A program made the position numbers and the translations under genes. From sequence record OR844765: DNA of 64,000 nucleotides, one strand, 5' to 3'. The first letter of the stretch is position 1. Each line of letters begins with the position of its first letter. The DNA comes from Escherichia phage ECO111 5-P. This document shows positions 52,694 through 55,310 of this stretch, piece after piece. A model generated the notes under the pieces. That model was not told the DNA's origin, did no database searches, and worked only from the letters and a program-made list of their open reading frames with translations.

Positions 52694-54514
52694 ATGATTA
52701 AAAATGAAATTAAGGTATTGTCAGATGTAGAACATATTAAGAAACGTAGTGGTATGTATATTGGTTCTTCGGCCAAAGAAGCACATGAGCGTTTTTTGTT
52801 TGGTAAATATCAACAAGTTGAATATGTTCCTGGCCTGGTTAAATTAATCGATGAGATTATTGACAACTCGGTTGATGAAGCTATTCGTACATCATTTAAG
52901 TTTGCAAATAAAATTGATGTGCAAATTAAAAATAATCAAGTTTCGGTGGAAGATAACGGACGTGGTATTCCTCAAGGTTTAGTTACCGACCAAACAGGTG
53001 AACAAATTCCTGGTCCTGTAGCGGCCTGGACTATTCCAAAAGCCGGTGGTAACTTTGGTGATGACTCTGAACGCAAGACTGGTGGTATGAACGGCGTCGG
53101 GAGTAGTTTAACTAATATCTTCTCTACGTTGTTTACAGGCATCACGTCAGATGGCGAAAATGAAATTACTGTTAACTGTTCAAACGGAATGGAAAACAAA
53201 TCATGGTCTTCTAAGAAATCTAAAGGTAAAGGCACTAAAGTAATCTTCACTCCTGATTTCTCTTCATTTGAAGAGCATAATTTATCTCAAATTTATTTAG
53301 ATATTACTTTAGACCGACTTCAAACATTGGCAGTCGTTTATCCTGATATCAAGTTCACATTTAATGGTAAAAAGGTTGATGGTAATTTTAAACGATTTGC
53401 TAAACAATTTGGTGAAGATAACATCATTCAAGAAAATGATAAAGTCTCTATAGCATTCACAACATCGCCAGATGGCTTCCGTCATTTAACTTATGTGAAT
53501 AACATCCATACTAAAAATGGTGGCCATCATGTTGAATGTGTAATGGATGATATCTGCGAACATCTTTTGCCGGGTATTAAAAAGAAATATAAGGGTATTG
53601 AAGTCACTAAAGCTCGTGTTAAAGAATGCCTCACAATGTTGATGTTTATTAGAGACATGAGCAACATGCGTTTTGATTCTCAGACTAAAGAACGTTTAAC
53701 GTCAACGTATGGTGATATTCGTAATCATATCCAATTAGATGCTAAGAAAATTGCTCAGGCACTTCTTAAAAACGAAGCCTTGATTATGCCTATTGTTGAA
53801 GCAGCATTAGCTCGTAAATTGGCAGCAGAAAAGGCTGCAGAAACTAAAGCAGCTAAAAAGGCAACTAAAGCTAAGGTTCATAAGCATATTAAAGCTAACC
53901 AATGTAGTAAAGATGCAGATACGACATTGTTCTTAACAGAAGGTGATTCTGCAATTGGTTATCTCATTGATGTTCGTGACCGTGAACTACACGGCGGATT
54001 CCCATTACGTGGTAAGGTGATGAATAGCTGGGGTATGTCATATGCTGATATGATGAAGAACAAAGAGCTCTTCGATATCTGTGCTATCACAGGTCTTATT
54101 CTTGGTGAAAAGGCAGAGAATACGAACTATCGTAATATTGCAATTATGACCGATGCCGATCATGACGGTCTTGGAAGTATTTATCCGGCTTTGCTTGCTT
54201 TCTTTAGTAATTGGCCTGAATTGTTTGAACAAGGACGTATTCGCTTTGTTAAAACGCCTGTAATTATTGCACAAATTGGCAAAACTCAAAAATGGTTTTA
54301 TACTGTAGCTGAGTATGAAGAAGTTAAAGATACACTGCCTAAGCATAGTATTCGATACATCAAGGGATTGGGCTCACTTCAGCGAGATGAATATAAAGAA
54401 ATGATTCAAAACCCTGTGTACGACGTAGTTAAACTTCCTGAAAATTGGAAAGAACTATTTGAAATGCTCATGGGTAACGACCCTGAACTCCGTAAAGATT
54501 GGATGCTAGGATAA
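52694..54514 (+). CDS. 39: DNA topoisomerase II large subunit gp39 (GyrB-like ATPase plus TOPRIM), unsplit form covering T4 genes 39 and 60
   Basis: 606 aa; GHKL ATPase motifs and TOPRIM MTDADHDG in one continuous frame. Confidence 0.92.
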   Translation: MIKNEIKVLSDVEHIKKRSGMYIGSSAKEAHERFLFGKYQQVEYVPGLVKLIDEIIDNSVDEAIRTSFKFANKIDVQIKNNQVSVEDNGRGIPQGLVTDQTGEQIPGPVAAWTIPKAGGNFGDDSERKTGGMNGVGSSLTNIFSTLFTGITSDGENEITVNCSNGMENKSWSSKKSKGKGTKVIFTPDFSSFEEHNLSQIYLDITLDRLQTLAVVYPDIKFTFNGKKVDGNFKRFAKQFGEDNIIQENDKVSIAFTTSPDGFRHLTYVNNIHTKNGGHHVECVMDDICEHLLPGIKKKYKGIEVTKARVKECLTMLMFIRDMSNMRFDSQTKERLTSTYGDIRNHIQLDAKKIAQALLKNEALIMPIVEAALARKLAAEKAAETKAAKKATKAKVHKHIKANQCSKDADTTLFLTEGDSAIGYLIDVRDRELHGGFPLRGKVMNSWGMSYADMMKNKELFDICAITGLILGEKAENTNYRNIAIMTDADHDGLGSIYPALLAFFSNWPELFEQGRIRFVKTPVIIAQIGKTQKWFYTVAEYEEVKDTLPKHSIRYIKGLGSLQRDEYKEMIQNPVYDVVKLPENWKELFEMLMGNDPELRKDWMLG

Positions 54515-54879
54515 TGAATTATCGTAAAATTTATGATAAACTTATCGCTGCGGCTAAAAACCGCAGCATTATTCCTAATTATACTGAGACACATCATATA
54601 TTGCCAAAATCTATGGGTGGGAGTAATGATAAATCAAATATAGTTAAAATGACCCCTAGAGAGCATTTTATCGCCCATTTATTGCTTTATAAAATTCATA
54701 AGAACCGTTCTATGCTTATGGCTATTAGAGCTTTTTACATGGGAGCTAGAAATTCTAGAGATTATGATTGGCTTAAACAAGAATTCTCTAAAGAGCACTC
54801 TAGATTTATGAAAGAATGGATTGCTAAAAATGGCAACCCATTTAAAGGTAAAAACATACTAAAGCAACAAGAGAATTAA
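54514..54879 (+). CDS. HNH endonuclease domain protein (N-terminal part of split homing endonuclease)
   Basis: ETHHILPKSMGGSNDKSNIVKMTPREHFIAH HNH motif; TAATGA overlap with gene 39 stop. Confidence 0.6.
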   Translation: MNYRKIYDKLIAAAKNRSIIPNYTETHHILPKSMGGSNDKSNIVKMTPREHFIAHLLLYKIHKNRSMLMAIRAFYMGARNSRDYDWLKQEFSKEHSRFMKEWIAKNGNPFKGKNILKQQEN

Positions 54880-55310
54880 TGTCACATATTGCTTCACAAC
54901 GTATAGGCGAATTAAATCCATTTTATGGTAAAACTCATACGCAAGAAGCAATAGATAAAATAATACAGGCCAACAAGTTATCTTGGGAGAATGGGCGAAA
55001 AGCACCTGTAAAAACAAAAGAACACCAGGATAAAATAACTAAATCAAGAATGGAAACATTTAAAACAAAAGGATTTAAACCATACACTCCTAGGTCGGAA
55101 GAAACTAAAGCTAAGACTAGAGAGTTGTATAAATCTAAATATGAAAGAAGGCCTATAAGAATCACAAGTGTAAAAACAGGTGAAACTATTGATTTTAACT
55201 ATCTTTATGAATTAAGGGAGTATTTAGATATAGGGTCTTCTAATATATTGAAAGCATTAAATAATCCTAACAGAACCTGCAAAGGTTATAAAATGTGTTG
55301 GATGTCCTAA
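54879..55310 (+). CDS. NUMOD-type DNA-binding protein (C-terminal part of split homing endonuclease)
   Basis: ELNPFYGKTHTQEA NUMOD3-like motif; start overlaps previous stop by 1 nt. Confidence 0.55.
   Translation: MSHIASQRIGELNPFYGKTHTQEAIDKIIQANKLSWENGRKAPVKTKEHQDKITKSRMETFKTKGFKPYTPRSEETKAKTRELYKSKYERRPIRITSVKTGETIDFNYLYELREYLDIGSSNILKALNNPNRTCKGYKMCWMS

Follow-up and report, generated by a model that had tools for sequence, protein, structure and literature searches.

A homing endonuclease gene frameshifted in a homopolymer at the 3' end of an unsplit topoisomerase gene 39 in a T-even phage

Results

We analysed 64,000 nucleotides of Escherichia phage ECO111 5-P (record OR844765; hereafter the window), which come from a Mosigvirus (RB69-like T-even) phage. 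The features of its topoisomerase locus are collected in Table 1. Residues 1-473 of T4 gp39 align with residues 1-474 of the gp39 of the window (79% identity) and residues 27-158 of T4 gp60 with its residues 473-604 (83%), and this colinearity means that gene 39 is unsplit here. At the position of the T4 bypass, the T4 alignment shows no coding gap and a continuous protein. Comparison with T4 gp39/gp60 also showed that the 50-nt translational bypass element is absent from gene 39, as is the Toprim insertion (~codons 466-491) by which the gene is divided into two ORFs with C-terminal-extension (CTE) and N-terminal-extension (NTE) sequences. An earlier note on this DNA had proposed that the gene covers what T4 divides between genes 39 and 60 and needs no bypass element, and both proposals hold. 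A one-piece gene 39 is the usual state in T-even phages without the MobA cassette and no peculiarity of this phage: splitting of the T4 type is a derived state, caused by that cassette (bioRxiv 10.1101/2022.08.31.505936; PMC2988022).

Table 1. Features of the gene 39 region (positions counted from the first nucleotide of the window)
Feature	Position	Strand	Basis
Gene 39, unsplit topoisomerase II large subunit, 606 aa	52694..54514	+	ORF; Pfam HATPase_c, DNA_gyraseB, Toprim; T4 alignment
High-identity tract common with Tequatrovirus copies of the element	54100..55400	+	Identity profile vs fPS-90
Gene 39 3' end diverged from endonuclease-free Mosigvirus relatives	54293..54505	+	Identity 86-91% vs 97-100% upstream
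799-bp insertion relative to endonuclease-free Mosigvirus AlbertHofmann	54506..55304	+	Junction sequences; annotation of the endonuclease-free locus
ORF1, HNH nuclease domain of the frameshifted endonuclease, 121 aa	54514..54879	+	ORF call, Pfam, PHROG
GC-rich hairpin, 7 pairs, 33 nt into the endonuclease ORF	54547..54567	+	Terminator pattern match only
Stretch with both frames open	54849..54879	+	Sequence read directly
A5 homopolymer, frameshift site (GGT-A5-CAT)	54850..54854	+	Alignment with relatives: A6 or A7
ORF2, second NUMOD3 repeat and C-terminal DNA-binding region, 143 aa	54879..55310	+	ORF, Pfam, PHROG, AlphaFold2 model
Terminator-like hairpin and T-rich tail	55308..55327	+	Pattern match; junctions of relatives
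Downstream neighbour, 366 aa, outside the element	55353..56453	+	phrog_8302; annotation of relatives: putative hmC-arabinosyltransferase

Two short ORFs follow gene 39. The ATG of ORF1 (54514) overlaps the TAA of gene 39, and the ATG of ORF2 (54879) overlaps the TAA that closes ORF1 (54877-54879), with the sequence AAGAG located 5 nt upstream. ORF2 is read in the -1 frame relative to ORF1, and the last eight residues of ORF1 (NILKQQEN) are out of frame. The motif NPFKGK occupies residues 108-113 of ORF1 and NPFYGK residues 13-18 of ORF2, so that, as described before, NPF(K/Y)GK repeats flank the break; the coordinates, lengths and TAATG overlap given for the two ORFs also stand on re-reading. 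Both frames are open in a short stretch bounded by a TAA in the frame of ORF2 (54849-54851) and by the stop of ORF1. The hairpin found near the beginning of ORF1 might, by its sequence, attenuate expression of the endonuclease.

The break between the two ORFs is explained by a single nucleotide. Because a run of six A has lost one, the reading frame is lost after Lys113 and a stop is reached 8 codons on, and this frameshift parts a 121-aa nuclease domain from a 143-aa DNA-binding part. Adding the A back yields a 265-aa protein, 98-99.6% identical to annotated homing endonucleases. Aligned with AV111 (A6, one 798-nt ORF) and AV118 (A7), the A-run is the only length difference, and an 85-nt probe found A6 with a continuous 265-aa ORF in 26 of 27 GenBank records carrying the endonuclease gene, A7 in the remaining one (AV118) and A5 in none. 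The lesion sits 24-28 nt upstream of TAATG, inside the first NUMOD3 repeat, in what is the sole run of at least six bases of the repaired gene, and apart from it the gene has no other defect. The ATG of ORF2 is an internal Met codon of the intact protein (in ...RELMSH...), and the frameshift produced the TAATG junction incidentally, as the first stop of the shifted frame happens to meet this codon. One free-standing HNH homing endonuclease gene of the Mob type, read in two frames, accounts for both ORFs. Interruption by a substitution creating the TAA can be discarded, since the ORFs do not share a frame and intact copies differ from the window only in how long the A-run is. The earlier description of an HNH gene divided by a TAA is right in that the two ORFs end and start there, but the cause of the division is a 1-nt deletion in the A6 run.

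Homology places both pieces in one enzyme. Residues 1-205 of the repaired protein match phrog_655 (E = 3e-56), and Pfam NUMOD3 (PF07460) finds two repeats in it (36.5 bits), in agreement with the earlier proposal that both ORFs come from a single HNH/NUMOD endonuclease. The contrary case raised there, two ORFs matching distinct families, can be set aside: one PHROG family spans the junction of the repaired protein, and distant homologues are continuous across it. Three of these, P0002-P0004 at 42-45% identity, are undivided proteins of 265-275 aa in which the NPFKGK(K/S)HT motif runs without a break; P0002 and P0003 are encoded directly 3' of an unsplit gene 39 in other T4-like phages, and P0004 also matches Pfam I-HmuI_NUMOD-like. 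In 26 of the 27 related records the NUMOD3 repeats lie on the same chain as the nuclease, whereas in the window the first repeat is broken and the rest is in a separate ORF.

ORF1 retains all the residues invariant in the family, namely E25, H27, H28, N42, H51, H55 and L58, the first six being invariant across an alignment of 36 family sequences, and its catalytic motif has the conserved His/Asn/His. This full set of residues counts against a loss of function in the A5 allele. The Pfam HNH profile scores 19.2 bits on ORF1, slightly below its cutoff of 21.4. On sequence grounds, we assign the gene to the HNH (beta-beta-alpha-Me) homing endonucleases of the T-even Mob type. In an AlphaFold2 model (mean pLDDT 90), the frameshift site falls in a loop following the last helix of the nuclease domain. 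The best solved-structure match of the model was weak (I-HmuI, 1u3e; E = 4.6e-3, TM-score 0.2-0.3, 18% identity over 88 aligned columns), so the model points to a resemblance in fold and architecture only; the fold search of solved structures gave no match at E ≤ 0.001, and a sequence search of solved structures nothing significant (best McrA, E = 0.56).

Pyrosequencing, Ion Torrent and nanopore instruments classically err in just this way, by one base in the length of a homopolymer. The phage could thus truly be A6, with an intact 265-aa gene from which the record dropped one A, and both the absence of A5 from the 27 GenBank records and the otherwise faultless endonuclease gene would agree with this. 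We regard such an error as rather unlikely. The identical A5 was found at 10 loci, in as many assemblies drawn from no fewer than 10 SRA runs; it sits on at least three haplotypes of the endonuclease and at least four gene 39 backgrounds, and this recurrence on several haplotypes means that the A5 allele exists in nature. Sequencing error is also opposed by the high mutation rates of A6 runs in T-even phages: these runs are hypermutable in T2, T4 and T6, and in the A6 run of rIIA a +1A mutant reverts at a ~10,000-fold higher frequency than does a point mutant (bioRxiv 10.1101/2025.10.21.683753). The recurrence of A5 fits slippage at a hypermutable A6 run.

Each of the A5 haplotypes has an A6 sibling, and one of them, with a private K64N substitution, was found in two gene 39 backgrounds 2.5% apart. 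The 121-aa product was counted on 19 contigs of metagenome assemblies, against ~65 for the intact one among the members listed. A5 is more frequent in these assemblies than expected for a rare error lethal to function, and the off state of the endonuclease is possibly neutral or even advantageous. Scans of IMG/VR and JGI metagenomes for further alleles of the A-run gave one locus each, both A6. One locus considered as an A5 copy in a Mosigvirus context (L018) was discarded, its downstream sequence being that of Tequatrovirus, like the other Logan loci.

The A5 allele could in theory still give an active nuclease, either through a -1 frameshift on GGT AAA AAC or through two pieces, with the 143-aa fragment made by termination-reinitiation at TAATG and assembling non-covalently with the 121-aa nuclease. 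A -1 shift anywhere within the stretch open in both frames would restore the native full-length protein, the A-rich codons AAA AAC are moderately shifty, and both fragments could be made because the ATG of ORF2 overlaps the stop of ORF1 behind AAGAG. The spread of the K64N haplotype over two backgrounds could be taken as a sign of activity too, yet T-even phages recombine so freely that none is needed to account for it. In the zero frame, however, the site reads T AAA AAC, which departs from the canonical slippery heptamer X XXY YYZ. No stimulatory structure starts within 30 nt downstream of the run (the first predicted stem lies 31 nt downstream; MFE of the downstream fold -14.6 kcal/mol, z = -1.67), and homologues do not conserve the two-frame arrangement: a single ORF is found in 26 of 27 records and in every distant homologue. 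We therefore reject a programmed -1 frameshift. As for two pieces, the AlphaFold2 model places the break inside the extended NUMOD3 linker and not at a protein-protein interface. Altogether we hold residual activity by either route to be extremely unlikely. Between the options of the earlier note, a decaying homing endonuclease or a two-subunit nuclease, the evidence favours the former, while the latter finds no support in the 26 single-ORF GenBank copies or in the single-ORF homologues at 42-45% identity.

Length variation of the run can also be seen as a switch, with A6 on and A5 or A7 off, kept by selection in that switching is sometimes advantageous. All three lengths are found in nature, every inactivating change in ~45 copies lies at this run, the only one of at least six bases in the gene, and A5 is carried by at least three haplotypes that each have an A6 sibling. 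Contingency loci of just this type are described for T-even phages (Gomez, Barrick & Waters, bioRxiv 10.1101/2025.10.21.683753), and the endonuclease run resembles them as a homopolymer of at least six bases in an ORF, A6 in most isolates, with natural -1 and +1 variants. Yet it may differ from them in being no more than a mutation-prone site within a gene the phage does not need. The A6 run merely encodes the Lys-Lys of the conserved NUMOD3 motif (GKKH), which homologues write without a long run (GKSHT in P0003, DHKHT in P0002). There are ~170 such runs per T-even genome (bioRxiv 10.1101/2025.10.21.683753), so one is expected here by chance in DNA of 32% GC, and neutral slippage in a dispensable gene explains the pattern equally well. 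Selection for switching is, in our view, very unlikely, and slightly less likely still is its fuller form, a selected reversible switch of a phase-variable nuclease targeting gene 39, possibly with residual expression from A5 by -1 slippage.

The endonuclease gene is present or absent among Mosigvirus phages: the full region was found in 19 records, and precisely the ~800-bp insert is missing from many relatives of 96-97% identity; the close relative AlbertHofmann is also without it. The insert is flanked by TGGATG at 54500-54505 and 55299-55304. In AlbertHofmann the 3' DNA of gene 39 reads ...GAACTTCGTAAAGAATGGATGTCCTAA..., and the final residues of the endonuclease ORF with their stop (WMS*) represent the end that gene 39 had before the insertion. 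The diverged segment that precedes the insert encodes a replacement C-terminus of gp39, ...GNDPELRKDWMLG*.

Similarity to Tequatrovirus copies of the element changes within gene 39. Upstream of ~54050 the window is 65-80% identical to fPS-90; between ~54100 and ~55350 identity rises to 97-100%, and the tract so delimited takes in the last ~410 nt of gene 39, the endonuclease gene and a further ~96 nt on its 3' side. Between Mosigvirus and Tequatrovirus, the endonuclease gene is 98-99% identical and nucleotides 1-1300 of gene 39 are ~74% identical. We read the tract, from its identity profile, as a co-conversion tract of homing; such flanking tracts and presence/absence polymorphism together are the marks of a free-standing Mob-type gene. 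The terminator-like hairpin lies directly 3' of gene 39 in endonuclease-free relatives and was carried with the element into Tequatrovirus, whose copies include this hairpin, of Mosigvirus origin, and the opening 54 nt of the arabinosyltransferase gene. Judged from these comparisons, the cassette moved from Mosigvirus to Tequatrovirus. Pfam gave no match on the 366-aa product of the neighbouring gene in the window.

Discussion

Homing endonuclease genes are abundant in T-even phages. We consider it highly probable that the locus consists of an ordinary one-piece gene 39 and a Mob-type HNH cassette lodged in its last codons, the latter split by the loss of one A from an A6 run. Inserted at the end of gene 39, the cassette gives gp39 a substitute C-terminus (...DWMLG*) and then encodes a 265-aa enzyme with an N-terminal HNH domain (~residues 1-106), two NUMOD3 repeats and a C-terminal DNA-binding region, its own end fused to what is left of the former gene 39 terminus. 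During co-infection with endonuclease-free phages, the intact enzyme would probably nick or cut their gene 39 in its conserved 3' part (...GAACTTCGTAAAGAATGGATG...), after which the cassette would be copied in by recombinational repair along with flanking DNA. Replication slippage at the hypermutable homopolymer is the most probable cause of A5, and would switch off, or start the decay of, a selfish gene dispensable to the phage.

The closest parallel in location is T4 MobA, described (Bonocora et al. 2011, cited in bioRxiv 10.1101/2022.08.31.505936; PMC2988022) as an HNH homing endonuclease with a 50-nt bypass cassette. Both are free-standing HNH endonucleases associated with gene 39, both have a start codon that overlaps the end of the upstream gene 39 ORF and give that ORF a new C-terminus, and both are pseudogenised by frameshift in some genomes, lab T4 included. 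However, MobA inserts at ~codon 470 (Toprim), the gene being divided there into 39 and 60 and the bypass cassette required, whereas the element in the window inserts in the last ~5 codons and leaves the 606-aa protein whole, without bypass, CTE or NTE. The comparison with the T4 mobA and gene 60 region that the earlier note proposed thus bore out the match to gene 60 but, for mobA, only an N-terminal similarity (53% identity over the N-terminal 45 aa). The element is not a copy of T4 MobA: similarity is confined to the N-terminal 45-70 aa, the C-terminal DNA-binding regions are unrelated, and insertion site and cassette parts differ.

Other relatives share the architecture. RB3 MobD (36% identity over 186 aa) and MobE (44% over 126 aa) have in common with the window endonuclease the nuclease domain and first NUMOD3 region, all being in phrog_655, and they are likewise intergenic, promoter-less cassettes that overlap the upstream gene and show presence/absence polymorphism. 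They insert at nrd genes, in contrast to the gene 39 3' end, and their C-terminal ~100 aa differ from those of the window protein, which is known from sequence. I-HmuI, a nicking enzyme of Bacillus phage SPO1, also has an HNH domain followed by extended NUMOD-type segments and a C-terminal DNA-binding domain, but is intron-encoded.

The finding is ordinary: the intact endonuclease gene is already annotated in more than 20 GenBank genomes, and the locus follows the textbook course of homing endonuclease genes, invasion and then frameshift decay. For annotation, a single frameshifted homing endonuclease gene should be entered in place of two proteins. The recurrence of the homopolymer frameshift in nature agrees with the recent reports on A6 runs of T-even phages, and the cassette bears an exceptionally clear trace of its passage from Mosigvirus to Tequatrovirus.

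An unsplit gene 39

The earlier note had described gene 39 as encoding a single 606-aa protein that covers both T4 genes 39 and 60, followed by ORFs of 121 aa (ORF1) and 143 aa (ORF2), and the coordinates of all three are borne out by the raw sequence and its list of ORFs. The gene 39 product carries the Pfam domains HATPase_c, DNA_gyraseB and Toprim, and represents the unsplit form of the topoisomerase large subunit because it aligns with both T4 proteins: with residues 1-473 of gp39 (79% identity) and, through its residues 473-604, with residues 27-158 of gp60 (83% identity). 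The split gene is the derived state, arising from insertion of the MobA element and its bypass cassette, and the gene is in one piece in close relatives lacking the MobA element (bioRxiv 10.1101/2022.08.31.505936; PMC2988022). The unsplit gene is a correct, though unremarkable, observation.

Coordinates of gene 39, the endonuclease ORFs and related features
Feature	Sequence	Position	Strand	Details
Gene 39	Window	52694-54514	+	606 aa
ORF1	Window	54514-54879	+	121 aa; ATG at 54514 overlaps gene 39 TAA
ORF2	Window	54879-55310	+	143 aa; ATG at 54879 overlaps ORF1 TAA (54877-54879)
Cassette insert	Window	54506-55304	+	799 bp
Mosigvirus-derived tail and gene 39 remnant	L005 (fPS-90)	3799-3920		Same in L006, L007, L009-L018
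Homologue P0002	L019	3664-4530		45% identity; directly behind unsplit gene 39, other T4-like phage
Homologue P0003	L022	4001-4819		45% identity; directly behind unsplit gene 39, other T4-like phage

One endonuclease gene in two frames

An endonuclease divided by a TAA with a TAATG overlap had also been proposed. The two ORFs and the overlap are present, but ORF2 is shifted by -1 against the frame of ORF1, and the cause is an A-run at 54850-54854 that has five bases (A5) instead of the six (A6) of the in-frame state. Pfam identifies NUMOD3 in ORF2 and, below threshold, an HNH motif in ORF1. A group of Mosigvirus genomes shares 96-98% identity with the region, and none of the sequence records compared is identical to the window. 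The Mosigvirus AV111 has here a single CDS of 798 nt with the annotation "homing endonuclease", and in an alignment of the window, AV111 and AV118 the sole length difference is this run (GGT-A5-CAT, A6 and A7, respectively). An 85-nt probe across the run matched 27 records, none of them with A5: 26 carry A6 (85-nt span) and AV118 carries A7 (86 nt), which leads to ORFs of 116 and 143 aa (L002, 3268-4066); AV109, AV114, AV115 and AV116, sister phages belonging to the study that AV118 comes from, have A6. Restoring one A in the window gives a continuous 265-aa protein (reading ...NGNPFKGKKHTKATRELMSHIASQRIGELNPFYGKTHT...), 98-99.6% identical to annotated endonucleases; hence the ATG that opens ORF2 encodes the internal Met of RELMSH. 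The TAA ending ORF1 is just the first stop reached in the wrong frame, and the TAATG overlap results from the frameshift and is no designed junction.

That the two ORFs could belong to distinct, unrelated families is contradicted by phrog_655 ("homing endonuclease"), which matches residues 1-205 of the repaired protein and so spans the junction (E = 3e-56), and by the homologues from a large protein database, which are single chains. The nearest ones outside the 98% cluster (265-275 aa, 42-45% identity, full coverage) hold the NPF(K/L)(G/D)(K/H)(K/S)HT motif unbroken. The repaired protein has two NUMOD3 repeats (36.5 bits), and all residues invariant in a 36-sequence alignment (E25, H27, H28, N42, H51, H55 and L58) are kept in ORF1. 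Named relatives found by tblastn are RB3 MobE (44% identity over 126 aa) and RB3 MobD (36% over 186 aa); similarity to the T4 mobA region (53%) is limited to the first 45 aa. In the T4 reference (L004, 3669-3800) that similarity is itself divided between two frames, in agreement with published statements that mobA of laboratory T4 is a pseudogene.

Relative to the common endonuclease haplotype, 9 of the 11 base substitutions in the window gene fall within 72 nt around the HNH motif (54569-54640), giving T19I, A39D and L43I. Such a cluster resembles a small patch of recombination or gene conversion, for which a paralogous mob gene is a possible source. Beginning 33 nt into the endonuclease ORF, a GC-rich 7-bp hairpin with a T-rich stretch behind it (54547-54567) recalls the internal terminators and hairpins that are reported to keep down the expression of other T4 mob genes (PMC2988022).

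In an AlphaFold2 model, built on a 98%-identical intact protein (mean pLDDT 90), the N-terminal domain closes with a long helix (residues 81-106), the frameshift site falls within the loop 107-116, and behind this loop come helical repeats and, at the C-terminus, a small alpha/beta domain. Its best solved-structure match, a weak one, is the nicking endonuclease I-HmuI (E = 4.6e-3, TM-score 0.2-0.3). Since the model and the I-HmuI architecture would place the break in an extended DNA-binding linker, not at an interface, non-covalent reassembly seems unlikely. With a -1 shift at any point in 54849-54879, translation would yield the native protein again, but the site (T AAA AAC) is no canonical heptamer, no structure begins within 30 nt downstream of it (fold z-score -1.67), and the two-frame arrangement is not conserved. 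It is very unlikely that the split form keeps residual function.

Insertion at the end of gene 39 and transfer between genera

At this position, about 800 bp are missing from many Mosigvirus genomes whose flanks on either side are 96-97% identical. Without the endonuclease, gene 39 ends in ...GAACTTCGTAAAGAATGGATG-TCCTAA, with a hairpin behind it; in the window it ends in ...GAACTCCGTAAAGATTGGATG-CTAGGATAATG..., and it is the endonuclease ORF that ends in ...TGTTGGATG-TCCTAA, before the same hairpin. This junction comparison delimits the insert between two TGGATG hexamers. The cassette supplies a new gp39 end (DWMLG-stop), and the old one (WMS-stop) now closes the endonuclease. Farther on, a 366-aa ORF (55353-56453) separates gene 39 from rIIA.1, a position that is empty in Tequatrovirus; it has no Pfam match and a full-length match to phrog_8302, and is annotated in relatives as a putative hmC-arabinosyltransferase and in NRG-P0074 as a glycosyltransferase.

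In the last ~220 nt of gene 39, sliding identity to an endonuclease-free relative is 86-91%, down from 97-100%. Compared with the Tequatrovirus fPS-90, a Yersinia phage, it is 65-80% in gene 39 up to ~54050, and from there 97-100% as far as ~55350, endonuclease gene included; for AV118, a divergent Mosigvirus, the switch occurs at ~53800. Between the two genera, nt 1-1300 of gene 39 are 74% identical and the endonuclease gene 98-99%. These profiles show the co-conversion tracts expected of homing, and so support it. In all Tequatrovirus copies, the endonuclease is followed by the hairpin of Mosigvirus, the intergenic spacer and 54 nt from the start of the Mosigvirus arabinosyltransferase gene; at CTGAC/C (the slash marks the junction), this stretch meets what is left of the phages' own gene 39 end, CTTCGTAAAGAATGGATGAGCCAGTAG (LRKEWMSQ-stop). 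This shared tail and junction therefore indicate a single Mosigvirus-to-Tequatrovirus move, with an illegitimate right junction.

The distant single-chain homologues P0002 and P0003 share the position behind gene 39, and at L019 the old gene 39 end (CTTCGTAAAGAGTGGATG... / CTTCGTAAAGAGTGGATGAATCAATAG) is kept behind the endonuclease gene, which suggests that the family has its putative target in the conserved LRKEWM-coding end of this gene. L019, from a metagenomic T4-like phage, also has, immediately upstream of gene 39 (1144-1851), an ORF of 235 aa whose product contains an Endonuclease_7 domain; it is probably another free-standing nuclease insertion.

The A5 allele in nature

A5 is a singleton among GenBank records. 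By exact-sequence look-up, 18 contigs in read-archive assemblies encode another 121-aa product, and A5 was present in all ten loci examined, from at least 10 runs. These comprise at least 3 endonuclease haplotypes and at least 4 gene 39 backgrounds differing by 2-4%, and two of the haplotypes (L010 compared to fPS-90, L009 to BYEP01) differ from A6 copies in the run and at no more than one further site. Given this spread over loci, haplotypes and backgrounds, A5 is a natural allele, and the sequences make its repeated origin most likely. Over the gene, the window is 99.5% identical to its closest A6 relatives (a20, BEU50 and NRG-P0074), and its own A5 may be a mutation or, with lower probability, a homopolymer miscall.

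A5 and A7 are the only inactivating changes seen in ~45 copies, and this A-run is the only run of at least 6 bases in the gene. The recurrence of A5 agrees with the published mutability of homopolymers in T2, T4 and T6, where reads contain frameshift variants of runs of at least 6 bases at ~3e-4, and reversion of a +1A mutant in the A6 run of rIIA is ~10,000 times as frequent as that of a point mutant (bioRxiv 10.1101/2025.10.21.683753). That changes in this run constitute a selected on/off switch is very improbable. Behind an ordinary unsplit gene 39, the window carries a Mob-type HNH homing endonuclease whose intact, single-chain form is already annotated, here as a frameshifted allele; ORF1 and ORF2 should be annotated as one disrupted gene.
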